A DNA stretch of 63,513 nt, filler included. It is 9 parts of 9 records of this genome, joined end to end, with 100 filler letters (N's around TTAATTAATTAA, not from the genome) between each part and the next. Parts side by side here need not be neighbours in the genome. Positions count along the whole stretch, not along the records: positions 1 to 7,889 come from SRR31156797_72973; 8 more parts are not named here. One strand, 5' to 3'. Under the pieces are notes generated by a model. It saw only the letters and a list, made by a program, of their open reading frames with translations, had not been told where the DNA came from and ran no database searches. This document shows positions 1,425-38,481 of the stretch, one piece after another. Position numbers and translations under genes: made by a program. How positions within the stretch are numbered: position 1 is the first letter of the stretch; every line of letters begins with the position of its first letter.

Positions 1425-1721
1425 ATGCCTTTATATTTTAAAAGATCATTACCACACGATATCTCGATCTGTGCAGCCGGAAACGGCGGTTTTATTGTCA
1501 ACGTCGGCTGTCAGACGTTTGTTTACAGGGAAGACGATAAGGCCCAAATGGTATTAGATCTCCGGGAATACATAAGTAATCCTGAGGCCGTAATTCGCGC
1601 CCACGATCAATACATACAATCCAAAAGAAACGACCCGTTAGCTGATATCAGGCGGGACGCCCCTGAACCTCGCCCGAAAATGGAGGCTGTCGAGAGCGTC
1701 CCTGATCCGGGTGCGGATTAA
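1425..1721 (+). CDS. Phage hypothetical protein
   Basis: 98-aa ORF with a strong AGGAGG SD, co-oriented in the phage module. Confidence 0.7.
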   Translation: MPLYFKRSLPHDISICAAGNGGFIVNVGCQTFVYREDDKAQMVLDLREYISNPEAVIRAHDQYIQSKRNDPLADIRRDAPEPRPKMEAVESVPDPGAD

Positions 1722-1733
1722 GGGAACCTTACT

Positions 1734-2489
1734 GTGAGAGAGCTTTCCCTGTTCAGCGGCATCGGGGGGGGGCTGCTCGGATCGAAGCTTTTAGGATGGA
1801 GGCCTGTCGGATATGTCGAGATCGATGACTACTGCCAGAGGGTTATCGCCCAAAGAATCGAGGACGGATTTTTGCCCGTCGCTCCGATTCTCGGCGATAT
1901 CCGAACATTCATCGATCAAGGGTTCGCCGGAGCATATAAAGGCATGGTTGACATCGTTACAGCCGGTTTCCCCTGCCAGCCCTGGTCCGTGTCCGGAAGC
2001 CATAAAGGGGAGATGGATCCTCGAAACATGTGGCCTTGGACCATTCGCGTTATTAGAGAAGTGCGTCCGGCATGGTGCTTATTGGAAAACGTCCCAGGCC
2101 TGCTTACCCGGCGTCACGGATATTATTTCGGACAGATACTCAAGGACCTGGCCGAGGCGGGGTTTGATGCTCAATGGGGCTGTGTATCGGCCGGTGATGT
2201 GGGCGCGGCCCATTTGCGCGAAAGAGTATGGATACTTTCATCCAACACCTTTGACAAAATCTCACAGCGGCGGCCGGCAGAGGCCTCGAAAGCGGAAAGG
2301 GCGCCGCGATCCCAAACAAAACAATTATCAGGATTGGTGCAGCCTGGTGCTTGGCCATCGATATCCGAGTGTAAGTCTTACGGAAAGGACGATGGGCTTC
2401 CCTATAGGGTGGAGCGCACTCGAACCCTTGGAGGATCACAGGTTCCGGCAGTGGTCAGAGCTGTTTGGCTGCTTATGACCGGGGAATAA
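1734..2489 (+). CDS. DNA (cytosine-5)-methyltransferase, alpha-type polypeptide lacking motif IX
   Basis: Motif I LFSGIGG, motif IV GFPCQ, motif VI ENV, motif VIII RERVWI and motif X-like TLGGSQVP. GTG start. Confidence 0.9.
   Translation: MRELSLFSGIGGGLLGSKLLGWRPVGYVEIDDYCQRVIAQRIEDGFLPVAPILGDIRTFIDQGFAGAYKGMVDIVTAGFPCQPWSVSGSHKGEMDPRNMWPWTIRVIREVRPAWCLLENVPGLLTRRHGYYFGQILKDLAEAGFDAQWGCVSAGDVGAAHLRERVWILSSNTFDKISQRRPAEASKAERAPRSQTKQLSGLVQPGAWPSISECKSYGKDDGLPYRVERTRTLGGSQVPAVVRAVWLLMTGE
1813..2478 (+). CDS. Nested +1-frame ORF, probable second (beta-type) subunit of the C5 methyltransferase
   Basis: 221 codons open from an ATG entirely inside the methyltransferase gene. It ends with SLTERTMGFPIGWS, resembling C5-MTase motif IX, which the main frame lacks. 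The true start is uncertain. Confidence 0.65.
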   Translation: MSRSMTTARGLSPKESRTDFCPSLRFSAISEHSSIKGSPEHIKAWLTSLQPVSPASPGPCPEAIKGRWILETCGLGPFALLEKCVRHGAYWKTSQACLPGVTDIISDRYSRTWPRRGLMLNGAVYRPVMWARPICAKEYGYFHPTPLTKSHSGGRQRPRKRKGRRDPKQNNYQDWCSLVLGHRYPSVSLTERTMGFPIGWSALEPLEDHRFRQWSELFGCL

Positions 2490-2501: not shown

Positions 2502-2834
2502 ATGTTACCGACTGTCACGAACAGGGACCGTTCCCGCTGGTATATCGGAATGCGGGTCGGGGTTTTGAAAGGTATTGACGGCGGAGTTGCCCGCCTGATC
2601 GGCTACGGAACCTATAACGGCGTCCGTGTTCCTTCCGGTGTTTTTATTGGTCCTACTGCGGACCTTGTCGCCGAGGGCAGGGCTACCGTGGAAATACTCT
2701 TGGACTCCGGACAGAAAGTTTACGGCTGTGAATGCTGGTGGGAGAGGGAGAATTTTATCCGGGGGATCGTCAAGCAGTGCGATGTTGTGATCCGGGTCGA
2801 TATAGACGAGGAGCGAAAGGCGGCGGTGAGCTGA
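2502..2834 (+). CDS. Phage hypothetical protein
   Basis: 110 aa, GAGGAGG SD, with a distinctive VYGCECWW motif. Confidence 0.7.
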   Translation: MLPTVTNRDRSRWYIGMRVGVLKGIDGGVARLIGYGTYNGVRVPSGVFIGPTADLVAEGRATVEILLDSGQKVYGCECWWERENFIRGIVKQCDVVIRVDIDEERKAAVS

Positions 2835-2836
2835 TA

Positions 2837-5086
2837 ATGGACGATTACCGGGAATTCCTTGACTCGAAAAAGGTTACGGTCGCCGACTCCGGTTTCGAGG
2901 CTAATGCCCTGAACGCCTTTCTGTTCGACTTCCAAAGGCCGATCGTTCGGTGGGCTCTCAGAAAGGGCAGGGCCGCGATATTCGCTGATTGCGGGCTTGG
3001 AAAAACACCGATGCAATTGGAGTGGGCGTATCGTGTTGTAAGATACACGGAAAGGCCTGTCCTTATTCTCGCGCCGCTGGCGGTATCAGGCCAAACGCGA
3101 GACGAGGGAATTAAATTCGGCATACCTGTAAAAATCGTTAAAAGTCAGCCGGATATTGTTCGAGGTATCAATATTACAAATTATGAGCGGTTGCACAAAT
3201 TCGACTGTTCAATATTTGGCGGCATAGTTCTTGATGAAAGTTCCATCCTGAAAAACTTCATGGGAAAAACAAAACAGGCGATCATAAACACTTTTAAAAA
3301 TACGGAATACAAACTCGCATGCACCGCCACGCCCGCGCCCAACGATTACATGGAGCTCGGCAATCATTCAGATTTTTTAAACGTTATGCCGGCAAACGAA
3401 ATGCTGAGCCGCTGGTTTATAAACGATACGATGAGCTTTGGAAAATACCGTCTTAAAGGCCATGCCGCAGCATCTTTCTGGGAATGGATTTCGAGTTGGG
3501 CGGTATGTATCAGTAAGCCGTCTGATATGGGGTATCCTGATGACGGTTTTAATCTTCCGAAATTAAACATAGAAGAAATCATATTACCGGTCGATCACGC
3601 ACAATTGTCTGACGACAAACTTTTCAGATTACCGGCCTTAAATGCAATAGAGCTACATAAAGAAATGCGATTAACAGCGCCTGCAAGGGCGGCGAAAGTC
3701 GCGGAATTGGTTAATTCAAACAAAGAGCCATGGATAGTCTGGTGTAACACGGATTATGAAGCGGACGAGTTAATTAAATTGATTCCTGATGCTGTCGAGG
3801 TCCGTGGAAAAATGTCAGATAATGTTAAAGAAAGCAACCTTAGAGCGTTTGGAAATGGAGAACATAGAACGATCATTACGAAACCGTCTATCGCGGGGAT
3901 GGGCTTAAACTGGCAGCACTGTCGCAACGTCGCATTCGTCGGCCTTAGCTACTCATACGAGCAATTATATCAGGCGTTAAGACGCTCGTGGCGATTCGGA
4001 CAGGAAAACGAAGTCAACGCATATATTGTGCTGGCGGAAACGGAGCAAGTTGTTTTGGATAGCGTTAAAAGAAAGCAGGCTGAACATGAAAGTATTCAAG
4101 CAAATATGTATCGACATAATTTCCAAAAAACGAAAAATGTTTCTCATCAATTAACGGTTGAAAATCCGCATCAAATTGAATCCGGTGATAACTGGACGGT
4201 GATAAATTCGGATTGTATTGAACATGTAAGAACGATTAAAAACAATCTGATCGATTTTACTGTTACGAGCATTCCTTTTTCAAATTTATATATTTATTCG
4301 GACTCAATCCGCGACATGGGTAATTGTAAAAACGATGCGGAGTTTTTCGATCACTTCCTGTATCTCGTGCCTGAAATATGTCGAATCACAAAGCCTGGCC
4401 GGTTAGCCGCTATCCATTGCAAGGATCTCGTCAATTACAAAGGCCGTGACGGTATGGCCGGCCTAAGGGATTTTCCGGGCGATATTATCAGATCGTTCCA
4501 GGCGTCCGGATGGGCATATCACAGTCGCGTGACGGTCTGGAAATGCCCGGTTACGGAAATGACCAGGACGAAAGCCCAGGGGTTGCTCTACAAGCAGCTA
4601 CGTAAAGACTCGGCCTTTTCTCGACAGGGTCTTGCAGAGTATCTGCTTATATTCCGTAAGCCCGGCGACAACGAATCTCCGATCACCCACACAACAGACA
4701 GTTTTCCTCTACCAGACTGGCAAGAATATGCTTCTCCGGTTTGGATGGATATCCGCCAAACGAACGTTTTGAATGTTCAGCAGGCCCGGGAATCGAAAGA
4801 TGAAAAACATATCTGCCCATTGCAGCTCGATTTGATAGAGCGGGCGATCCAGATATGGAGCAATCCGGGCGATATTGTCTTTGATCCGTTCAGCGGAATC
4901 GGTTCGTCCGGCGTCGTGGCGCTAAAAATGAAACGCAGATACTTCGGGATAGAGCTGAAGGAAAGCTATTGGAAGGATTCTGTTCGCCATCTAAGAGCCG
5001 CCGAACGCGCCTGGGAGGACTTACCGTTGTTTGATAACGACCGGGAGGGCGACGAATGCTCATTAACCCAAGAATCGGGAGCGTAG
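2837..5086 (+). CDS. SNF2-like helicase fused to a beta-class N4/N6 DNA methyltransferase
   Basis: Helicase motifs ADCGLGKT, LDES, TATP and QALRRSWRFG. The C-terminal MTase has TSIPF (motif IV variant) before DPFSGIGS (motif I). Start taken at ATG 2837, just after the upstream stop. Confidence 0.88.
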   Translation: MDDYREFLDSKKVTVADSGFEANALNAFLFDFQRPIVRWALRKGRAAIFADCGLGKTPMQLEWAYRVVRYTERPVLILAPLAVSGQTRDEGIKFGIPVKIVKSQPDIVRGINITNYERLHKFDCSIFGGIVLDESSILKNFMGKTKQAIINTFKNTEYKLACTATPAPNDYMELGNHSDFLNVMPANEMLSRWFINDTMSFGKYRLKGHAAASFWEWISSWAVCISKPSDMGYPDDGFNLPKLNIEEIILPVDHAQLSDDKLFRLPALNAIELHKEMRLTAPARAAKVAELVNSNKEPWIVWCNTDYEADELIKLIPDAVEVRGKMSDNVKESNLRAFGNGEHRTIITKPSIAGMGLNWQHCRNVAFVGLSYSYEQLYQALRRSWRFGQENEVNAYIVLAETEQVVLDSVKRKQAEHESIQANMYRHNFQKTKNVSHQLTVENPHQIESGDNWTVINSDCIEHVRTIKNNLIDFTVTSIPFSNLYIYSDSIRDMGNCKNDAEFFDHFLYLVPEICRITKPGRLAAIHCKDLVNYKGRDGMAGLRDFPGDIIRSFQASGWAYHSRVTVWKCPVTEMTRTKAQGLLYKQLRKDSAFSRQGLAEYLLIFRKPGDNESPITHTTDSFPLPDWQEYASPVWMDIRQTNVLNVQQARESKDEKHICPLQLDLIERAIQIWSNPGDIVFDPFSGIGSSGVVALKMKRRYFGIELKESYWKDSVRHLRAAERAWEDLPLFDNDREGDECSLTQESGA

Positions 5087-5268
5087 TTCAGATCTGGTAT
5101 CGGCCGGAAATGAGCCGGCTAATGCCCTGGCATGGCCATAGAGGCCGTGTTCTTACATCGGGCAGGGGTAAGCCCCGGAATCATGTCATAGGCGTGTCCG
5201 GGAGTTCAATAGTGGTTCCCTGCGGGAATATCAGGAAGGCGAAAGAGGATGAGGTCAAGGAATATTAA
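5056..5268 (+). CDS. Small phage hypothetical protein
   Basis: 70 aa with a GGGAGG SD, overlapping its neighbours in phage style. Confidence 0.55.
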   Translation: MLINPRIGSVVQIWYRPEMSRLMPWHGHRGRVLTSGRGKPRNHVIGVSGSSIVVPCGNIRKAKEDEVKEY

Positions 5269-6205
5269 ACCGGGTTTTTTTCGGAATGAGAATCTGGCAA
5301 AGACGCCCTGGTTTGTCCGGATGGTCTTCGCCGGGCTATGGCTGTATGTCGACCGTGACGGACGATGCGAGTATCGTCCCGAGAAAATTGTCACCGAACT
5401 TTTTATGTATGAGTATGTGAACGGCACTGTAACAGCACAGGACGTGCACAGTGCTTGTCTGGTTCTTGCATGGTGTTTTCCGCATCCTTTCGTCATATTG
5501 TATGAAATTGACTCCATATCGTATCTTGAGGTCACAAACTTCAAAAAACACCAAAATCCGCACATCAAAGAGCGATCTCGCGAATTCCCGCCTCCAACCG
5601 AAGATAACATATTGAATCCAGACAATATTTCAAAAAGTCCGGTGCTAGCACTATACCAGCATGGTTTTAGCACCTTTTCGGCCCGGCTTGATTCCTTGAT
5701 TCCTAGATTCCTAGAAGAAGTAGCTCCGAGCACGTCGAATTGCGATATTGCAGAGGTCGACGATATGAGCCAAAGCGACGATACGCCATATCGCACATTC
5801 CCCAAAAAACGAAAAAACGAAACACCTGAAGAGTTCCACCAGCGATACATGACCGAATGGGCTACGCCTCAGGCAGAGGCGTTTCTGGATGATCCTCTGA
5901 CCAAGGAGGCCTTCCCGGGCATAAACCGCAGACAGGAGGTAAACGAAGCGCTCTCGTGGCTGAGAGCGAATCCCTCCAAGAGAAAAAAAGCGATATCGGC
6001 TTTTCTTCATCGCTGGCTGTCAAAAGCACAGGAGAAGGCCGGCCGACCCAGGTCGAATTACCAACCAACACAACTCAGCCCAGGCCTTAATCCAAAAAGC
6101 CCGCCGCCCTCTCCCGAGCCCACGCCGGAGGAACGGGAAAAAGGCAGGCTGCATCTCAGGTCATGGCTGGACGACGCGGCAAAAAAGAAAAAAATGCCGG
6201 AATAG
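5249..6205 (+). CDS. Phage replication initiator (lambda O-like/replisome organiser type)
   Basis: N-terminus MRSRNIKPGFFRNE...LWLYVDRDGR...FKKHQNPH, then a central linker and a C-terminal WLRANPSKRK...FLHRWLSKAQ domain typical of phage replication proteins. Confidence 0.8.
   Translation: MRSRNIKPGFFRNENLAKTPWFVRMVFAGLWLYVDRDGRCEYRPEKIVTELFMYEYVNGTVTAQDVHSACLVLAWCFPHPFVILYEIDSISYLEVTNFKKHQNPHIKERSREFPPPTEDNILNPDNISKSPVLALYQHGFSTFSARLDSLIPRFLEEVAPSTSNCDIAEVDDMSQSDDTPYRTFPKKRKNETPEEFHQRYMTEWATPQAEAFLDDPLTKEAFPGINRRQEVNEALSWLRANPSKRKKAISAFLHRWLSKAQEKAGRPRSNYQPTQLSPGLNPKSPPPSPEPTPEEREKGRLHLRSWLDDAAKKKKMPE
5424..5715. repeat. 11-bp-phased GCAC repeats and 8-bp tandem repeats inside the initiator gene (candidate phage ori)
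   Basis: GCAC(T/A)G at 5424, 5435 and 5446. AGCA(C/T) at 5647, 5658 and 5669. T(T/A)GATTCC x3 at 5688-5711. Confidence 0.5.
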
Positions 6206-9130: not shown

Positions 9131-10408
9131 CTATCGGCGCAAGACCGCCACCAGTTCGACATGCCCCGACCAGGGAAACTGATCGACCGGCGTGACGGTC
9201 TCAAGCCCATATCCGCCGTCGACCAAAATCCGCGCATCGCGTGCGAATGTCGCCGGATTGCACGACACCGCCACCACCGTTTTGGGCCCGGCGTTCGCCA
9301 GGGCTTCGGCCTGCGCCCGCGCGCCGGCCCGCGGCGGATCGAAGACGACCGCGTCGAAGCGGGCCAGTTCGGCCTCCACCAGCGGCCGCTGATAAAGATC
9401 GCGCGCCTCCGCCTGCACCCGGCCGGTTGCCGCCAGGGCGGAAATCAGACCGGCGTCACCGTCGGCGGCATAGACTTGGCGGCCCGGGAACAGGCGCAGC
9501 GCAAAAGTGCCGAGGCCGCAGAACAGATCGGCGACGCGCGCGCCTTCTTCGATGGTTTTCACAACCCTGTCCGCAATCGCCGCCTCGCCCTCGGCGCTCG
9601 GCTGCAGGAAAGCGCCCGGCGGCGGCGAAACCGTAACGCCTCCGATATTCAGGATCGCGCCGCCGAAGGTGGCGACGGGTTCGATCCGCCCGTCGTGACG
9701 CCAGCCAAGGCGCATCCGCCCGGCCTCGCGGCCGAAGGCGCCCAGGGTCTCGATCGCGGTCAGGTCCGGTACGCCCGGCAGGTCGATAAAAACATCGGCG
9801 CCTTCGTCCAACCGTGTCACCCAGATATCGCCGGTGGTATCGGGCGGCGTGATTTCCGCCAGCAAAGCCCGGAAACCGTCAATCAGGGAAAACAGCGACG
9901 AATCCAGGAGCGGGCATTCGGCGAGATCGACGATGGCTTCGCTGCCGCGCGCGTTGAAACCGATGACGGCGCCGCGCTTGCGGGTTCTGTATGCGAAGGT
10001 TGCGCGCCGGCGGCTGCCCGGCGGGATGGAGACCGTTTCGGCCACCGGCTCATCGCCCAGTCCCCGCTTGGCCAAGGCTTCGACGATGCGATCCCGCTTC
10101 CAGCGTGCAGCCGACCCGGCCGCCAAATGCTGGGTGGCGCAACCGCCGCAGTTGCCGAAGTGGCGGCAGGCGGGTGTTATCCGTTCCGCTGCCGGTTCCA
10201 GGATTTCCAGCAACCGCGCGAAAGCGCCGTCCCGCGTTTGGCGCGTCACCTCGGCCCGCACCCGCTCGCCGGGCAGGACAAAGGGCACGAACAGGGGCTT
10301 GCCATGCCACAGACCGACGCCGTCGCCCTGGGCGCCGAGGCGCTCGATGATGGCTTCGATGATTTCGGTTTGTTGCGTCTTTCGGCGCCGCGGCGATCGT
10401 TTGTTCAT
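9131..10408 (-). CDS. rlmD: 23S rRNA (uracil-C5)-methyltransferase, RlmD/TrmA family
   Basis: TRAM-like N-terminus, CRHFGNCGGC Fe-S motif, DLFCGLG, DPPRAG, VSCNP and HVE. Confidence 0.88.
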   Translation of the reverse strand: MNKRSPRRRKTQQTEIIEAIIERLGAQGDGVGLWHGKPLFVPFVLPGERVRAEVTRQTRDGAFARLLEILEPAAERITPACRHFGNCGGCATQHLAAGSAARWKRDRIVEALAKRGLGDEPVAETVSIPPGSRRRATFAYRTRKRGAVIGFNARGSEAIVDLAECPLLDSSLFSLIDGFRALLAEITPPDTTGDIWVTRLDEGADVFIDLPGVPDLTAIETLGAFGREAGRMRLGWRHDGRIEPVATFGGAILNIGGVTVSPPPGAFLQPSAEGEAAIADRVVKTIEEGARVADLFCGLGTFALRLFPGRQVYAADGDAGLISALAATGRVQAEARDLYQRPLVEAELARFDAVVFDPPRAGARAQAEALANAGPKTVVAVSCNPATFARDARILVDGGYGLETVTPVDQFPWSGHVELVAVLRR

Positions 10409-10449
10409 TCTGCTACTATAGGCGCAAAGGCGATGAATGGGAGGCAGGC

Positions 10450-10965
10450 ATGACGATCGATGTGTACCGCGAGGTCGGCAAGAACCGCTACCGCGAGGAT
10501 TTCGGGTTTTATTACGAAGACTTCGTCGAAGGCACCATCATCGAGCACCGCCCGGGACGGACGCTGACCAACACCGATAATTTCTGGTTCACGCTGCTGA
10601 CCAACAACCCCTCGCAGGTTCATTTCGACGCCCATTACGCCGCCCAGACCGAATGGAAGGAGCCGCTGGTCGACAGCACCCTGACATTCGCCATCGTCAC
10701 CGGCATGTCGGTCAATACGGTCAGCAAGCATGTCGTCGCCAACCTGGGCTGGGACGAGGTGCGTCTGACCAAGCCGGTGTTCGCCGGCGACACCATCTAT
10801 GCCGAAAGCGAGATCCTCTCCAAACGGGAATCGAAAAGCCGACCCGATCAGGGCATCGTCACGGTCGAAACCCGCGGCATCAAACAGACCGCCGAGGTCT
10901 TCATGACCTTCAAGCGCACGGTCCTGGTCTATAAACGCGGCCACGGCCCCAACTACGACATCTGA
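10450..10965 (+). CDS. MaoC-family dehydratase
   Basis: YYEDF-G...GRTLT-TDN...NPSQVHFDAHYA...NLGWDEVRLTKPVFAGDT hot-dog fold motifs. Confidence 0.9.
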   Translation: MTIDVYREVGKNRYREDFGFYYEDFVEGTIIEHRPGRTLTNTDNFWFTLLTNNPSQVHFDAHYAAQTEWKEPLVDSTLTFAIVTGMSVNTVSKHVVANLGWDEVRLTKPVFAGDTIYAESEILSKRESKSRPDQGIVTVETRGIKQTAEVFMTFKRTVLVYKRGHGPNYDI

Positions 10966-10988: not shown

Positions 10989-12152
10989 CTATTCCTGCCA
11001 GCCGAAACGTTCGGCCATGGCGTCGGGAATGGCCCGCCACATGGCCGCCTTCTGATCCTCGGAAAAAGCCCGGCGCCATTCCTCGGGATCGGCCTTCCTG
11101 AAATGCATGGCGCCTTTCGATCTTTCTTTCAGGCGGCTCCAGTCGGCGGCCTCGGCACAGCCGAAGAATTCCAGGATCTCGCGAACCGTGCCGGCATTAT
11201 CGCGCCGGAAATCGGCGTATTCGCCGAACCGGATGTCGATCGGCAGATCGCTCTCGTCGGCCTTGATCCATTCGTCGATCCAGGTCACGCAGTTGGGGAC
11301 GAATACCCGGGCGTTCCAATCGATGCGCTGCTCGCGGGAAAGTCCGTCGTATTCCTTGGGCCGGGCCGCCGTGCTTCGGATGCCCGCCGTTTCCTGGTCG
11401 TGGAACTGCGACAGGGCGGCCTGCCGGGGATCGCGTACATGCAGATAGATGCGCCTAACCCCATGCCTGACCAGGACATCCAGGTTCTCCGGGCTGGCGT
11501 CCAGATGCTCCTGGGTGATGCAGCCGCCGCGGGCGGCGAAGGCGACCGCCCGTTCGATGATCAGGTCGCGCGGGAACAGGCTCAGCGAGATGCGCTGGCG
11601 CGGCACACCGAGCATGCTGGCCATGTTGAAATAGAGAAAGATGCTGCCCGACTTCGGCAAGGTGTTGAGGAAGACGAACGGCAATCCCCGCGCCAGGGCG
11701 TTTTCCTTCATCCGGCGGTTGCCGGGCCCCGGAAATCGGTCGGCGGCATAGGCATCGTTGTACATGGCAACCAGTTGCCCCCCCATGCCCCGGCGCAGGA
11801 AGGCCGCCTCGAACAGATCGTGACCCGGCACCACGAATCCCTTGGCCAGACAATGCCGGTCGACGACGTCGAGCGCCGTCCGATCGTCGCCATGGGCGGC
11901 GATGTCGTCGGCAATCAGCCCGGCGATGGCAGGCGGCACGATGCCCTTGTCGAGAACCGCCAGATAACCGGCGGTTCCCCGGTCGGCATCGCCGGACAGC
12001 ATGGCGCAACGCGCAGCGACGAACCGGGCCAGGGGATTTTCCGGGTCTTCGGCCAGCGCCGTCTCGGCCCAGGCGGACTGTTCGCCGACGGCGTCGGCGA
12101 AAGCATCCGAAAAACACCGGCCGAACAGGACGTCCAATTCGCTGTCGCTCAT
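10989..12152 (-). CDS. Sulfotransferase-domain protein with helical (TPR-like) N-terminus
   Basis: 5'-PSB loop TLPKSGS, 3'-PB VRDPRQAALS and C-terminal HFRKADPEEW. Confidence 0.8.
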   Translation of the reverse strand: MSDSELDVLFGRCFSDAFADAVGEQSAWAETALAEDPENPLARFVAARCAMLSGDADRGTAGYLAVLDKGIVPPAIAGLIADDIAAHGDDRTALDVVDRHCLAKGFVVPGHDLFEAAFLRRGMGGQLVAMYNDAYAADRFPGPGNRRMKENALARGLPFVFLNTLPKSGSIFLYFNMASMLGVPRQRISLSLFPRDLIIERAVAFAARGGCITQEHLDASPENLDVLVRHGVRRIYLHVRDPRQAALSQFHDQETAGIRSTAARPKEYDGLSREQRIDWNARVFVPNCVTWIDEWIKADESDLPIDIRFGEYADFRRDNAGTVREILEFFGCAEAADWSRLKERSKGAMHFRKADPEEWRRAFSEDQKAAMWRAIPDAMAERFGWQE

Positions 12153-12460
12153 ACCGATTACCCCGTTCCCTGGCACACCCGCGATATCCGGGCAAACGGC
12201 CTGGAAATGGCTTAGAGCATTTTCCGGCTGGATGGAATCGAATCTGACAGCTCCGGGCGAGGTGGTCCGCCAGACACCCGGCGCAACCGCATTCGAAACG
12301 CTTGCCGGACCGGTTCGGACTTTTCACGGAATCGAAAGGATTTGCGGTTCAGATTGACGCTTTTCGCCTGCCGCCCGATATATGATAGAGATCGGATAGC
12401 CGAAGACGCGCGGATTTCAGGGCCTTGCACGGCAGCGGCCCTGCCGATGGGAACCTAGAC

Positions 12461-15263: not shown

Positions 15264-15368
15264 GGCACGATCGTCCCGTTTCTGCCCGAAATGACTTTGG
15301 TTCTCGGTTGCGCCTTCACATAGGGTCGCCGCCTTCCGATTCCCACAACCCTAGGACGTTCGACGATC

Positions 15369-16469
15369 ATGACCGCACTGAATCCCGTTATCGCGGCTGC
15401 CGCCCCCGGCGCCACCGCGACACCCAGCTTCGAAGACCGCATGGTCAACGCCTTCAACGAAGCGGCGATGATGCTGATGATTTCCGTCGGCCACCGCACC
15501 GGCCTGTTCGATACCATGAAGGGCCTGGCGCCGCTTTCCAGCGATGCCATCGCCGAGAAAGCCGGCCTGACGCCGCGCTATGTCCATGAATGGTTGGGCG
15601 GCATGGTCGTCGCCGGCGTCATCGACCTCGACCCGGAAACCGCGACATACACGCTGCCCGATGCCCACGCCGCCTTTCTGACCCGCGACGCCGAGGCCAA
15701 CCTGGCCGTCTTCGCCCAGTATTTCCCGGTGCTCGGATCGGTCGAGGACGACATCGTCGACTGCTTCAAGCACGGCGGCGGCGTGCCCTACGAACGCTAC
15801 GGCCGCTTTCACGAGGTCATGGCCGAAGACAGCGGCCAGACCGTTCTGCCGGCCCTGATCGACCATATCCTGCCGCTGGCGCCGGGCCTGATCGAGCGGC
15901 TCGAAGCCGGCATCCGCGTGCTCGATCTCGGCTGCGGCCGCGGCCGCGCCCTGATGCTGATGGCCAGGCGGTTCCCCAACAGCTCCTTCGTCGGCTACGA
16001 CCTGTCGCAAGCGGCCGTCGACTGGGCCGATAAGGAACGCCGCAAAGCCGATCTGGAAAACGTCCGCTTCGAAGCCCGCGATTTGAGCGATTTCGACGCA
16101 ACCGCCGAAGACGATGCCTTCGATCTGGTCACCACGTTCGACGCCGTTCACGATCAGGCCAAGCCGAAGAATCTGCTGAGGGGCATCGTCCGCACCCTGG
16201 CGCCGGGCGGGGTCTATCTGGCCCAGGACATCAAGGGATCGAGCCACCATCACCACGACCGCGACCATCCCTTGGGGCCGCTGCTTTACACCGTTTCCTG
16301 CATGCATTGCATGACGGTGTCCCTGGCCCAGGGCGGCGAAGGTCTCGGCGCCATGTGGGGCCGCGAGATCGCCGAACGTTATTTTGCCGAAGCCGGGTTC
16401 ACCTCGGTCGCCGTCAACGAACTCGAACACGACCCGCAGAACTACTACTACGTCTGCCAGGCCCTTTAG
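15369..16469 (+). CDS. Class I SAM-dependent methyltransferase with N-terminal winged helix (Rv2258c-like)
   Basis: GHRTGLF..RYVHEWL N-domain, VLDLGCGRG, TFDAVHD and CMTVSLAQGGEGLGAMWG. Divergent from the GlxA regulator. Confidence 0.9.
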   Translation: MTALNPVIAAAAPGATATPSFEDRMVNAFNEAAMMLMISVGHRTGLFDTMKGLAPLSSDAIAEKAGLTPRYVHEWLGGMVVAGVIDLDPETATYTLPDAHAAFLTRDAEANLAVFAQYFPVLGSVEDDIVDCFKHGGGVPYERYGRFHEVMAEDSGQTVLPALIDHILPLAPGLIERLEAGIRVLDLGCGRGRALMLMARRFPNSSFVGYDLSQAAVDWADKERRKADLENVRFEARDLSDFDATAEDDAFDLVTTFDAVHDQAKPKNLLRGIVRTLAPGGVYLAQDIKGSSHHHHDRDHPLGPLLYTVSCMHCMTVSLAQGGEGLGAMWGREIAERYFAEAGFTSVAVNELEHDPQNYYYVCQAL

Positions 16470-36912: not shown

Positions 36913-38481
36913 TCAGGCAGAGGCCCTCTCCTGCATCTCATGGCGCAGCCCCATGAACAGGCTGACCAGCATGACGATCATCACCGCGGTAAAGGGCAGG
37001 CCCACGGATACGGCAATGGCCTGGATGGCACCCAGGGCGTCGGCCCCGCCTCCCACCAGCAGACAGACGGCGATCAACCCTTCCAAGGTTGCCCAGAAGA
37101 CCCTCTGGATCACGGGCGCGTCCTGTTTTCCGCCGGCAGTGATGGAATCCACCACCAGGGAACCGGAATCGCAGGAGGTGACAAAGAACACCAGAACCAG
37201 GACAATACCGATAAAGGAGGTGATACTGGTCAGGGGCAGGTTGGCCAGCATCTGGAACAGGGCCAAAGAGACTTCGCCCAGGCCTTTTTCAGCCAGGACA
37301 CCCACATTGTTCTGTATCTGATGCAGGGCGTTTCCGCCAAAGGCCTGCATCCAGCACAGGGTGAGAATGGTGGGAACCACCAATACCGCCAGCATGAATT
37401 CGCGGATGGTGCGGCCCTTGGAGATACGGGCGATGAACATGCCCACAAAGGGGGCCCAGGAAATCCACCAGGCCCAATAGAATACGGTCCAGCCCTTGTA
37501 AAATTTATCGTCTGTCCGTCCCACCCAATTACTGAGGGGGAGGATATATTCGGCATAGGCCGAACTGGTGGAAAAAAGGCCGGAGAAAAAATGAAGAATG
37601 GAACCCGCCGCAATGGTGAACAGCAGAAGGCTCAGGGCCAGGGTCATATTAATATTGGAGAGCACCTTGATGCCCCCCTCAAGTCCTCTGACCACGGAAA
37701 CGATAGCGGCCGCCGTTACCAGGGCGATGATGATGAGCTGAAGGCCCAGGGTGTTTTCAATACCGAAAATAAAATGAAGGCCCGATGCGGCCTGCTGGGC
37801 ACCGAACCCCATGGAGGTGGCCAGGCCGAAAATGGTTGCGATAACGGCCACGGTATCAATGATGTGTCCGGCCCAGCCCCATGTTTTCTCCCCGAGGAGA
37901 GGAAAAAAGCAGGACCGGATGGTCAGGGGAAGGTTTTTGTTGAATGCAAAAAAACCCAGGGAAACGGCAACCACCGCATACATGGCCCAGGGATGAAGCC
38001 CCCAGTGGAACATGGTGGCGCCCATGGCGGCCCTGGCAGCTTCCGGGGTCTTTCCGGCAACATTCAAAGGCGTGCCCCACCAGTCGGTATAATAGGCCAC
38101 GGGTTCGGCAACGCTCCAGAACATGAGCCCGATTCCCATCCCTGCGGCAAAGAGCATGGCAAACCAGGAAGCCCGGGTAAACTCCGGTGCGCAATCGTCA
38201 CCGCCCAGCCTGATCTTCCCGGCCGGCAGCACAATGAGTAAAAGGCAGGTAAGCACAAAAATATTGCCCGAAATCATGAAAAACCAGTCAAAGTTCTGTA
38301 TGGTCCAGGATTTGGAGCTGTCAAACACCTTTTTGGCCTCCACCGGATTCATCAGGGTCAAAATAATAAAGCCGATTACCACCGCCGCAGAGATGAAAAA
38401 CACCGGCCCGTGGATATCCAGGCCCCATCTCCTTGTATTGTCCTGTCCGACTTTGTAATCGGTTTCAAACCTGTCTCTCAT
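36913..38481 (-). CDS. BCCT family (betaine/choline/carnitine) transporter
   Basis: SWFAMLFAAGMGIGLMFW, FHWGLHPW and WTVFYWAWWISWAPFVGMFIARISKGRT. Confidence 0.95.
   Translation of the reverse strand: MRDRFETDYKVGQDNTRRWGLDIHGPVFFISAAVVIGFIILTLMNPVEAKKVFDSSKSWTIQNFDWFFMISGNIFVLTCLLLIVLPAGKIRLGGDDCAPEFTRASWFAMLFAAGMGIGLMFWSVAEPVAYYTDWWGTPLNVAGKTPEAARAAMGATMFHWGLHPWAMYAVVAVSLGFFAFNKNLPLTIRSCFFPLLGEKTWGWAGHIIDTVAVIATIFGLATSMGFGAQQAASGLHFIFGIENTLGLQLIIIALVTAAAIVSVVRGLEGGIKVLSNINMTLALSLLLFTIAAGSILHFFSGLFSTSSAYAEYILPLSNWVGRTDDKFYKGWTVFYWAWWISWAPFVGMFIARISKGRTIREFMLAVLVVPTILTLCWMQAFGGNALHQIQNNVGVLAEKGLGEVSLALFQMLANLPLTSITSFIGIVLVLVFFVTSCDSGSLVVDSITAGGKQDAPVIQRVFWATLEGLIAVCLLVGGGADALGAIQAIAVSVGLPFTAVMIVMLVSLFMGLRHEMQERASA

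Follow-up and report, generated by a model that had tools for sequence, protein, structure and literature searches.

A C5 DNA methyltransferase probably encoded as two polypeptides in overlapping reading frames of a phage-type locus

Positions 1734-2489 of the window (the whole stretch of DNA analysed, 63,513 nucleotides including filler) probably encode a C5 DNA methyltransferase as two polypeptides, alpha and beta, read from overlapping frames, which would form a heterodimer like that of M.EcoHK31I with beta as the recognition subunit; we put the probability of this reading at roughly four in five. The analysis thereby supports the two-frame methyltransferase interpretation that a sequence-only reading had given the locus. 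The overlap exceeds chance, and alpha is the catalytic large domain only of such an enzyme, whereas the translation of beta, its binding to alpha, its part as the specificity determinant and the biological role of the complex are inferred.

In the proposed mechanism, one mRNA would be translated in two overlapping frames to give both polypeptides. Firstly, alpha, initiated at the GTG at 1734, would contribute motifs I, IV (with Cys81), VI and VIII, followed by a spacer of some 50 unstructured residues and the motif X helix. Secondly, beta, initiated at the ATG at 1813 behind its own GGAGG, would form the small domain, in which a conserved N-terminal block is followed by the (W/H)PTP signature, then by a basic region that varies, and lastly by a motif IX-like helix. 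Thirdly, the two chains would associate as in M.EcoHK31I, with beta holding the DNA major groove and setting the sequence specificity, and alpha flipping and methylating the cytosine. The enzyme would most likely shield the DNA of a phage or mobile element from host restriction.

Two nested frames and the motifs they carry

The alpha gene runs from a GTG start to a TAA stop at 1734..2489 (+ strand, 251 aa), and the ORF listing confirms the nested 221-codon frame of the sequence-only reading, the beta gene, at 1813..2478 on the same strand, with an ATG start and a TGA stop, in the +1 frame and wholly inside alpha. The two ORFs have 666 nt in common, the beta stop falls 11 nt before the end of alpha, and the proteins are nearly equal in length, with expected sizes of about 28 kDa (alpha) and about 25 kDa (beta). 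Reading of the sequence places a Shine-Dalgarno-like AAGGG at 1720..1724 (+), 9 nt 5' of the alpha GTG, and a GGAGG Shine-Dalgarno at 1798..1802 (+), within the alpha coding sequence and 10 nt 5' of the beta ATG. Up to where the alpha core ends, the +1 frame has 151 open codons; 300 synonymous shuffles of the gene averaged 26.8, and none attained the observed run. The +2 frame has just 16 open codons around a point 300 nt into the gene.

C5 methyltransferases are described by named motifs, including motif I (FxGxG), motif IV (PCQ, with the Cys), motif VI (ENV) and motif VIII (RxR), all four of which are present in the window's alpha, in columns kept in 78-80 of 80 relatives. Motif I is FSGIGGG, the AdoMet loop, at 1752..1772 (+), with F7, G9, G11 and G12 kept in 78-79 of 80 and its last nine nucleotides forming a G9 homopolymer (1764-1772, +). 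Motif IV is GFPCQ at 1965..1979 (+), in which P80 and the catalytic Cys81 are invariant (80/80). Motif VI is ENV at 2085..2093 (+; E118 in 79/80, N119 in 80/80), the same bases being read as W-K-T in beta, and motif VIII is HLRERVW at 2211..2231 (+; R162 in 79/80, R164 in 80/80). Motif X is LGGSQVP at 2427..2447 (+), followed by a helix at aa 238-249 (mean pLDDT of the block aa 241-250, 94). The five motifs previously attributed to the 251-aa frame were thus all located in it.

Scored comparisons assign alpha to the same class. It matches Pfam PF00145 at 2.2e-38 (132.9 bits, gathering cut-off 22), phrog_363 at 4.1e-53 over aa 1-245, and monomeric C5 methyltransferases in the PDB at 1.8e-15 by phmmer, and the alpha family HMM scores the window at 294 bits. 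The AF2 model (pLDDT 83.3, pTM 0.81) is confident at aa 1-178 and 238-249 and poor at about 180-230, and Foldseek aligns it with M.HaeIII and M.HhaI at E of about 1e-13, over about 176-180 columns with an rmsd of 2.2-2.4 and a TM of 0.47 on target length.

The earlier remark that alpha lacks motif IX and almost all of a TRD is borne out as well. The PF00145 match covers aa 1-182 only, corresponding to profile positions 1-169 of 324, and neither AF2, nor conservation, nor the Foldseek alignment, which ends at about 180 columns, shows a TRD or a motif IX in the alpha chain after motif VIII and before motif X. What lies there is a spacer at aa about 180-230 (2271..2423, +), predicted to be unstructured, with pLDDT block means of 39-63 across aa 181-230 and values below 50 at aa 204-225. 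Few of its columns are conserved in the relatives' alignment, and none reaches at least 85% between alpha aa 164 and 217. The DNA of this spacer coincides with the most conserved, C-terminal half of beta.

The beta family HMM matches the window with 288 bits in the frame alpha+1, and the window's beta also matches phrog_1008, labelled 'DNA methyltransferase', at 5.4e-5 and phrog_35493 at 5.1e-7. A word-based search with this protein returned three matches only, and it was a full HMMER scan that revealed the family; relatives of the protein include P0001, which is 45% identical, and P0002, which is 36% identical across 99% of the query length. Beta begins its conserved portion with an N-terminal block, CG...YWKTSQ...RTWPRRGLMLNG, at 2029..2178 (+), on the same DNA as alpha motif VI and the helix and strand that precede motif VIII. 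In this block G74, T93, P114, G117 and G122 are kept in 76-80 of 84 proteins, and AF2 predicts a hairpin at aa 118-125, with a mean pLDDT of 79 in its 10-residue blocks. Eight nucleotides after alpha motif VIII begins H-P-T-P (2239..2250, +), the window's form of the family signature W-P-T-P, in which T145 is kept in 82/84 and P146 in 76/84. The region between PTP and motif IX is of variable length and has extra W-P-T-P modules in relatives, and in the window it contains the basic stretch RQRPRKRKGRR that had been picked out beforehand, at 2275..2307 (+), which likely contacts the DNA backbone.

The last conserved element of beta is SLTERTMGFPIGWS at 2374..2415 (+), lying, as the sequence-only reading had placed it, just ahead of alpha motif X and ending 12 nt before it. 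Its E191, M194, G195 and P197 are invariant (84/84), and AF2 models a helix at aa 187-194, the block aa 191-200 having a mean pLDDT of 87. We call this element motif IX-like because its assignment is based on the short pattern E..MGFP.GW and its order before motif X rather than on a scored match to PF00145 or the PDB: seven beta proteins matched no Pfam family, and no PDB sequence was matched by single sequence or profile, even at E<=10. Modelled by itself, beta gives a poor AF2 prediction (pLDDT 61.3, pTM 0.28).

The window's copy departs from its relatives at several of these sites, and it could be that this copy has decayed, or been weakened, to the point of little or no methylation, even though the family as a whole has the layout. 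We regard this as unlikely. The near-invariant Asn of motif X, found in 75 of 80 relatives and in the GNGQ(V/I)P of all seven inspected relatives with motif X in alpha, is Gly in the window (G234), such that LGGSQVP does not fit the consensus GN(x)(V/I)P; beta is off consensus at S186, V187, R192, T193 and S201, flanking the invariant motif IX residues; and the G9 tract lies inside motif I. However, both frames are intact at full length, Cys81, E118/N119 and R162/R164 are retained along with beta E191, M194, G195 and P197, and the independent P0001 has the same beta motif IX variant, which suggests a subfamily rather than decay. The motif X Gly and the atypical beta motif IX could still weaken the activity of this copy.

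Conservation of the layout among relatives

In all 89 of a first set of sources, namely the window, three named phages and 85 IMG/VR loci, the beta HMM matched over the alpha core in frame alpha+1, and it did so again in 79 of 79 further loci located by alpha patterns alone. This gives 168/168 sources in total, 156 of them distinct. The frequent +1 stops in homologues that would have spoken against the sequence-only reading were therefore not seen, the beta-like ORF being kept in every source. The pair occurs in phages of Proteobacteria, Actinobacteria, Bacteroidota and Cyanobacteria, and the GC content of the genes examined ranges from 0.36 to 0.68. Among its carriers are cultured phages such as Salmonella phage vB_SalP_ABTNLsp11242, Stenotrophomonas phage SOVA965 and Pseudomonas phage VB_PaD_phPA-G. 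The order of the motifs along the DNA had first prompted the idea of a sequencing error, or of a pseudogene with two compensating frameshifts; this was ruled out because all 168 related sources have the same two-frame layout.

Stop-codon avoidance, which the sequence-only reading had proposed as a check, favours dual coding. Across 87 loci, the alpha core contained 97 stops in the +1 frame, compared with 333 expected from synonymous shuffles, a depletion of about 3.4-fold, counts that are not independent as the loci are phylogenetically related (the first 84 form 16 clusters at 60% alpha identity). Open runs in the +1 frame averaged 151 codons in the 87 loci, compared with 42 in the shuffles. 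Stops in the +2 frame were not depleted, with 720 observed and 648 expected.

The depressed synonymous variation also proposed as a check was addressed by scoring real and shuffled +1 translations against a leave-one-out beta profile in 16 non-redundant loci (<60% alpha identity). In 14 of the 16 the real translation outscored all 100 shuffles, and in the window it scored 109 bits against 73 +/- 11, a value attained by 0/100 shuffles. The +2-frame control was also raised, however, with 0/100 shuffles attaining the real score in 8 of the 16 loci; the +2 frame is not an independent control, as alpha third codon positions are common to both frames. Hence this test shows constraint on synonymous sites, and not which frame causes it.

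These data bear on the possibility that the composition or codon use of alpha yields the +1 ORF as a by-product that codes for nothing. The conserved residues of alpha do by themselves impose some +1 similarity, since shuffles still score 47-106 bits against the beta profile, and much of the N-terminal beta similarity is of this kind. Yet when the shuffles keep both the alpha protein and its codon usage, +1 stops become 3.4 times as numerous and open runs shrink about 3.6-fold, the effect persists in genes at 36-40% GC, the +2 stops are not depleted, and in some relatives the beta frame goes on past alpha. The by-product reading is therefore disfavoured, to the point of being scarcely credible.

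These last relatives, which we term type B (L004, L006-L008 and L093), divide the motifs differently. Their alpha ends right after motif VIII, and the recognition region is found, together with motif IX and the GNGxVP of motif X, in their beta frame, which runs past the alpha end. With the motifs split in this way, no enzyme could be made without translation of the +1 frame.

They also bear on whether beta, if translated, might be something other than a methyltransferase subunit, such as an independent DNA-binding, regulatory or anti-restriction protein. The lack of any scored match between beta and PF00145 or a solved structure would suit such a protein, as would the mostly low confidence of the beta fold modelled by itself. 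Nevertheless, in every relative alpha is without a recognition domain and without motif IX, and hence would be incomplete absent a partner, and the type-B beta frame carries a core methyltransferase motif, the GNGxVP of motif X. In L004 the beta protein matches phrog_1008 at 1.8e-26 and its C-terminal end matches phrog_32758, 'DNA methyltransferase'. Furthermore, two parts of the single-chain family phrog_116 are matched separately, profile positions 409-458 by the motif IX region of P0003 and positions 211-375 by the window's alpha. We therefore consider a role for beta outside the methyltransferase improbable. No alpha-beta fusion was found among the longer proteins matching the beta alignment, which is weak evidence; only P0004 was returned, a beta-type chain of 648 aa that contains a LAGLIDADG-like insert.

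In many relatives the two genes overlap from end to end. In 39 of 87 loci, which form 21 clusters below 80% identity, the starts lie 4 nt apart in the arrangement NTG-A-ATG, where the alpha start is ATG (20), TTG (10) or GTG (9) and the beta start is always ATG, directly following a +1-frame stop. Alpha codon 2 is AAT in 39/39 of these loci, compared with 148 AAT to 179 AAC elsewhere in the same genes.

Such starts are relevant to a single-chain alternative, in which recoding would join the frames: a +1 shift near the C-TTT-C at about 2236-2240, just past motif VIII, and a shift back before motif X would produce the canonical order of motifs I-VIII, TRD, IX and X. The order on the DNA, with motif VIII in frame 0, PTP and motif IX in +1, and motif X in frame 0, is indeed the canonical one, and a single +1 shift would be sufficient in the type-B relatives. 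But recoding would leave unexplained the openness of the +1 frame for 100-180 codons upstream of motif VIII, the conserved beta ATG after a +1 stop with AAT fixed in 39/39 loci, and the GGAGG of the window's own beta. It would also need two shifts of opposite direction in the window, and M.EcoHK31I has been shown to consist of two separate chains, according to the account in PMC2836561. Recoding is consequently very improbable, even more so than a beta that is no subunit, and translation of two separate chains is the preferred reading.

Relation to known methyltransferases

The precedent on which the sequence-only reading drew agrees with the literature, as far as the passages on it in PMC2836561 and PMC3404938 extend. 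According to these descriptions, which refer to Lee, Kam and Shaw (1995), M.EcoHK31I of E. coli HK31 (YGGCCR) is an alpha/beta C5 methyltransferase whose beta chain carries motif IX and is wholly encoded in another frame of alpha. Methylation needs both chains, the heterodimer being the active enzyme, and both internal initiation in the beta frame and the existence of two separate chains were demonstrated (PMC2836561, PMC3404938). A plasmid search for M.EcoHK31I-like genes gave many 'DNA cytosine methyltransferase' matches, none identifiable as M.EcoHK31I, so the comparison with the window is by description.

As described in these passages, M.EcoHK31I resembles the window's locus in that beta is nested in alpha in another frame, and in that alpha carries motifs I-VIII and X; motif IX has its counterpart in the E..MGFP.GW of the window's beta, which is motif IX-like by pattern and without a scored match. 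Unlike M.EcoHK31I, whose TRD is assigned to alpha in the same sources, the window's alpha has an unstructured, poorly conserved spacer between motifs VIII and X, and unlike the M.EcoHK31I beta, described as small and carrying motif IX only, the window's beta holds every conserved block of the recognition region. The family described here also stands apart in being phage-borne and very large, with many members overlapping end to end. A two-frame design proven for one E. coli enzyme is most likely kept here in every related virus sequence examined.

The type-B relatives resemble a second two-subunit C5 methyltransferase, M.AquI (CYCGRG), described in PMC3404938 as naturally split in the variable region, in that alpha has motifs I-VIII and beta has the distal variable region with motifs IX and X. 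Unlike M.AquI, the window has motif X in alpha and its genes overlap fully; the PMC3404938 passage on M.AquI mentions no overlap.

Among single-chain enzymes, the fold of alpha and its motifs I, IV, VI, VIII and X correspond to the large domain of M.HaeIII and M.HhaI (PDB 1dct, 2uz4 and others). Unlike these, which hold the TRD and motif IX in one chain between motifs VIII and X, alpha spans only about half of the enzyme.

Consequences for specificity, evolution and annotation

A broader proposal, for which we judge the odds about even, is that short phage 'Dcm-like' methyltransferase genes are generally two-gene loci, that the full-length +1-frame beta, with no Pfam-A or PDB sequence match, is their true recognition subunit, and that much of the family co-initiates both proteins from one ribosome-binding site at starts 4 nt apart. 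If so, this co-initiation would set the alpha:beta ratio, and the loci would be among the longest and most widely conserved same-strand overlaps in DNA viruses. The assignment of the M.EcoHK31I TRD to alpha should then be revisited, and specificity would evolve through the W-P-T-P modules of beta, encoded by the same bases that in alpha specify only a disordered spacer.

If both frames are translated, two proteins are encoded by the 666 nt shared in the window, and likewise by overlaps of 700-900 nt in many relatives. To our knowledge, same-strand dual coding at this scale is unusual in DNA viruses. The layout would offer a model, open to testing, of the way in which orphan methylases of phages gain and change specificity, and a natural system in which to study how DNA evolves when two coding frames constrain it at once. 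It would also supply C5 methyltransferases that are split by nature, a class of enzyme already in use for targeted-methylation tools according to PMC2836561.

Standard gene callers report one of the two genes, meaning tens of thousands of database entries would be either a recognition-less 'DNA methyltransferase' or an unexplained 'hypothetical protein'. The sequence-only reading had anticipated that the second subunit would be dropped, and one chain is indeed lost, though not always the same one: phage records in the databases show just one CDS where the alpha/beta pair lies, and in metagenome collections beta is often the called ORF, unnamed or labelled 'hypothetical protein'. No phage record near-identical to the window was found, and a full-text literature search, with most subscription journals outside its coverage, returned no paper on a phage two-frame methyltransferase family. 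PHROGs labels both phrog_363 and phrog_1008, matched by the window's alpha and beta respectively, as 'DNA methyltransferase', but keeps them as two unrelated families whose names give no hint of shared DNA. A search of the ESM Atlas returned viral clusters alone, labelled 'hypothetical protein' and lacking Pfam families. In public proteomes, the beta profile matched 46,575 cluster representatives at E<=1e-3 and 11,216 at E<=1e-30, which are unnamed or 'hypothetical protein' and belong to no Pfam family, and among the best 150 matches the majority begin at their own residue 1.

Two nested reading frames in the window

The open reading frame (ORF) of the C5 DNA methyltransferase chain, alpha, lies on the plus strand at 1734-2489 (251 aa, GTG start), and entirely encloses a second plus-strand ORF, beta, at 1813-2478 (221 aa, ATG start), in frame +1 relative to alpha, such that 666 nt are shared. 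In the established nomenclature of C5 methyltransferase motifs I-X, alpha encodes, on the plus strand, motif I (FSGIGGG, 1752-1772), motif IV (GFPCQ, 1965-1979), motif VI (ENV, 2085-2093), motif VIII (HLRERVW, 2211-2231) and motif X (LGGSQVP, 2427-2447). On the same strand, beta encodes an HPTP sequence (2239-2250), a basic run, RQRPRKRKGRR (2275-2307), and a motif IX-like block, SLTERTMGFPIGWS (2374-2415), the end of which is 12 nt from the start of alpha's motif X. The sequence-only reading, which had proposed a methyltransferase split over two overlapping frames with its second subunit in the +1 frame, was accurate in every element it described: both ORFs, their nesting, the alpha motifs, the beta motif block and the basic stretch. 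Beta has a Shine-Dalgarno sequence, GGAGG (1798-1802, plus strand), 10 nt before its ATG, and AAGGG is found 9 nt before the GTG of alpha.

In the window, no stop interrupts the +1 frame over the 151 codons leading up to the end of the alpha core, a length reached by none of 300 synonymous shuffles preserving the alpha protein and its codon usage (mean run, 26.8 codons), whereas the open stretch of the +2 frame around this position spans 16 codons only. Separately, the three glycine codons of alpha motif I (GGG GGG GGG) form a G9 homopolymer at 1764-1772, the longest G run of the 63.5-kb window, where the sole other run of at least eight is one G8. Among 86 related loci, just one other, L073, has a run of at least nine at motif I (G14, at a contig end). 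As the tract is upstream of the beta start, a slip within it would turn off alpha but not beta. It could be a phase-variation tract, or a mere chance of codon choice.

Conservation of the layout among relatives

With alpha as query, tblastn matched 1347 records in the phage collection. In three divergent relatives, Stenotrophomonas phage SOVA965, an uncultured Manatee Spring phage (alpha identity of 33-45% for these two) and Klebsiella phage BUCT711, the +1 frame was open across nearly the entire gene, and its translations had in common the blocks S.SWKT, TWP.WG.M..G, LPTPTA and EWLMGFP.GWT.L.PLE..KFQ.W. Three sets of loci were then drawn from IMG/VR: five with the window alpha protein as query, the best 80 of 213 confirmed loci with a beta alignment, and the best 80 of 563 confirmed loci, 79 of them new, with an alpha alignment, the search patterns of this last set lying only in alpha motifs I and IV and therefore exerting no selection for beta. 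Alpha and beta profiles were compared by hmmsearch with all stop-to-stop ORFs, and the beta match lay in frame alpha+1, overlapping the alpha core, in every one of the first 89 sources, and likewise in all 79 sources of the alpha-only search. These 168 sources comprise 156 distinct ones, as judged by a 300-nt core stretch, 11 contigs having turned up in two or three of the searches. Given the relatedness of the loci, such counts are not independent: the first 84 loci form 16 clusters at 60% alpha-core identity, with a median pairwise identity of 41%.

The stop-codon avoidance that the sequence-only reading had suggested looking for in homologues was evident. Across 87 loci, synonymous shuffles predict 333 stops in the +1 frame of the alpha core, but 97 are present, most of these in the first two codons, whereas +2 stops were not depleted (720 observed, 648 expected); the mean +1 open run was 151 codons, against 42 in the shuffles. 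Two loci with a split alpha core were left out of this test: L049, where the core spans two frames (1659-1910 and 1940-2155) and represents a dead copy with a frameshift or else an error of assembly, and L068, where it is interrupted into two stretches of one frame. The effect was present both in genes of 36-40% GC (L006-L008) and in GC-rich ones. In loci from the 16 clusters, the observed run was reached by five or fewer of 300 shuffles in ten cases, and by 9, 15, 15, 21, 62 and 88 in the others. The shuffles and the +2 frame together exclude the +1 ORF being a non-coding by-product of alpha.

Constraint on synonymous sites was assessed by scoring the +1 translation from each cluster, and 100 synonymous shuffles of it, against a leave-one-out profile of the +1 translations from the other 15. 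The real translation exceeded every shuffle in 14 of the 16 loci, and was reached by two and nine shuffles in the remainder; that of the window scored 109 bits, against 73 ± 11 for its shuffles. Shuffles still scored 47-106 bits, and therefore much of the +1 similarity is imposed by the conserved residues of alpha. The +2 frame was also raised in the same test, with no shuffle of 100 reaching the real score in eight of 16 loci, because the third positions of alpha codons belong to both other frames. Thus the shuffle scores demonstrate constraint at the synonymous sites of alpha, without indicating the frame from which it arises. The evidence as to which frame is responsible is instead the stop pattern, the layout of the starts and the type-B architecture.

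Regarding the starts, 39 of the 87 loci, falling into 21 clusters below 80% identity, have an NTG-A-ATG double start (for example, at 1438-1446 in L002 and 797-805 in L090). Alpha begins with ATG in 20 of these, TTG in ten and GTG in nine, while beta always begins with ATG, 4 nt downstream and right after a +1-frame TGA. The second alpha codon is AAT in 39 of 39, whereas other asparagines in the same genes are encoded by 148 AAT and 179 AAC codons. This layout points to independent initiation of beta, and suggests that, in much of the family, one ribosome-binding site may serve both frames. With L001, L084, L037, L004 and L005, the window is part of a subgroup in which beta starts 70-130 nt into alpha, the offset in the window being 79 nt, with a GGAGG of its own. 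A single chain produced by recoding, with frameshifting between the alpha and beta frames, fits the order of the motifs along the DNA, but leaves unaccounted for both the length over which the +1 frame stays open before motif VIII and the conserved ATG and own Shine-Dalgarno sequence of beta; in the window, it would also require two opposite shifts.

In type-B loci (L004, L006-L008 and L093; L012 is the L004 contig again), alpha, of 172-175 aa in L004 and L006-L008, ends a few to about twenty codons from motif VIII, and the +1 frame continues through a recognition region and an E..MG(W/F)P.GW block to GNGxVP, corresponding to motif X. With IX preceding X, the blocks of beta follow the canonical order. 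In the window type, alpha itself extends to motif X, with beta nested within it. The two ORFs of L004, at 1501-2016 and 1631-2629, exemplify type B. As the type-B alpha is short, and the rest lies in the +1 frame, a complete enzyme is impossible unless the +1 frame is translated. That beta is an unrelated protein overprinted on alpha is disfavoured, as alpha needs a small domain to be complete, and motif X belongs to beta in type-B loci.

The two chains and their proposed assembly

The methyltransferase family PF00145 matched alpha at 2.2e-38, limited to aa 1-182 and profile positions 1-169 of 324, and phmmer aligned alpha with the PDB sequences of M.HaeIII (aa 3-169) and M.HhaI (aa 2-169). 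The AF2 model of alpha, from an alignment with 80 relatives (pLDDT 83.3, pTM 0.81), is confident at aa 1-178 and in a helix at 238-249, and poor at about 180-230 (block means of 39-63). With this model, Foldseek found M.HaeIII (E 6.3e-14, rmsd 2.4, 176 columns) and M.HhaI (rmsd about 2.2, 177-180 columns); the TM score, normalised to target length, was 0.47. Alpha thus consists of the large catalytic domain, a spacer and the motif X helix.

Between aa 164 and 217, no alpha column reaches 85% conservation, and it is over this same DNA that the best-conserved columns of beta sit. Among 84 beta chains, E191, M194, G195 and P197 are invariant, and the conserved residue is present in 81-82 for G199 and W200, in 82 for T145 and in 76 for P146. 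Searches found no Pfam family for seven beta proteins and no match among PDB sequences, with a single sequence or a profile, whereas phrog_1008, 'DNA methyltransferase', matched beta of the window (5.4e-5) and of L004 (1.8e-26), and two small unnamed PHROGs covering the motif IX block also matched beta. Modelled alone by AF2, beta was poor (pLDDT 61.3, pTM 0.28), with local confidence at a helix (39-48), a hairpin (118-125) and two further helices, 187-194, which covers the motif IX-like block, and 208-218; this proves nothing, but would be compatible with folding of the chain on its partner and on DNA. The region between PTP and motif IX is very variable in length among relatives, with one to several extra W-P-T-P modules; that of the window is among the shortest, and holds the basic run.

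The window copy may be weakened, as its motif X has Gly234 where 75 of 80 relatives have Asn, and its beta is off consensus at five positions beside the motif IX invariants; however, this beta variant is shared by P0001, a relative of 45% identity, and the copy may instead be a member of a subfamily. A metagenome protein, P0004 (648 aa), is a type-B beta chain with a C-terminal GNGQVP, and has an insert of about 150 residues with a LAGLIDADG-like motif just after its S.SK(M/T)S block, a possible homing endonuclease or intein-like element within the beta frame.

The ORFs, the fold of alpha and the comparative signals are observed here; that beta is translated and pairs with alpha is what we infer. 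A single mRNA would be read from two starts, GTG 1734 for alpha and ATG 1813 for beta. Alpha would supply the large domain, for AdoMet binding and catalysis, and, beyond a disordered spacer, the motif X helix; beta would supply the small domain, formed of a recognition region and the motif IX-like helix. In the assembled enzyme, beta would read the major groove, and alpha would methylate the flipped cytosine, the likely role being self-protection of a phage or mobile element.

One enzyme provides a known precedent for a C5 methyltransferase beta chain nested within alpha in a different frame. In M.EcoHK31I, the whole of beta is encoded in a different frame of alpha (PMC2836561; PMC3404938); removing its start codons by changes silent in alpha abolished in vivo methylation, which was restored by supplying alpha and beta from separate plasmids (PMC2836561). 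Compared by description rather than by sequence, the two-start mechanism proposed here agrees with that system as described in these papers. In M.EcoHK31I the TRD is assigned to alpha, whereas beta here approaches alpha in length and has the conserved recognition blocks; also unlike M.EcoHK31I, a large part of this family has frames that overlap from one end to the other, their starts separated by 4 nt, and the family is phage-borne and very large. Type-B loci resemble M.AquI, but with about 130-160 codons of overlap. No account of this phage methyltransferase family was found in full-text literature covering few subscription journals.

Family size, annotation and neighbouring genes

A profile of 84 beta chains matched 46,575 of 1.84 billion cluster representatives at E<=1e-3, 30,347 at E<=1e-10 and 11,216 at E<=1e-30. 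The 150 highest-ranking matches are of 228-548 aa, most aligned from residue 1; among the clusters of ten of these, a source name was recorded in three, always 'hypothetical protein', and none in seven. Similarly, the clusters resembling window beta in the ESM Atlas are viral, carry the name 'hypothetical protein' and have no Pfam family. A typical beta matched 83 deposited phage records, with hosts including Mycobacterium, Stenotrophomonas, Porphyromonas, Pseudomonas, Vibrio, Ralstonia, Salmonella, Microcystis and Synechococcus. Among the 40 records listed, two were unannotated, and in all 38 others the beta match was covered by one CDS, or by two adjacent ones, with the name 'methyltransferase/methylase' or 'hypothetical protein'. 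In Salmonella phage vB_SalP_ABTNLsp11242 (L090), for instance, alpha alone is annotated (797-1531), with the beta match at 801-1508. In Mycobacterium phage Llama (L089), the beta match is in two pieces over the slightly overlapping genes 74 and 75 (1005-1376 and 1360-1764), both named 'DNA methyltransferase', another sign of this locus confusing standard annotation.

Directly downstream of alpha and beta in the window are a 110-aa ORF (2502-2834) and, overlapping it by 103 nt as listed, a 784-aa fusion of a helicase with a second DNA methyltransferase (2732-5086; phrog_16, phrog_62 and phrog_67), followed by a replication initiator (5249-6205). Therefore this element has at least two methylases beside its replication initiator. 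Elsewhere in the window, pairs of long ORFs (330-520 aa) occupy opposite strands at nearly the same coordinates (9131-10453, 10989-12215, 15351-16469 and 36913-38481), which may be compositional shadow ORFs. Of the plus-strand members of three of these pairs, those at 9161-10453 and 11103-12215 had no PHROG match, and that at 15369-16469 matches a methyltransferase PHROG.
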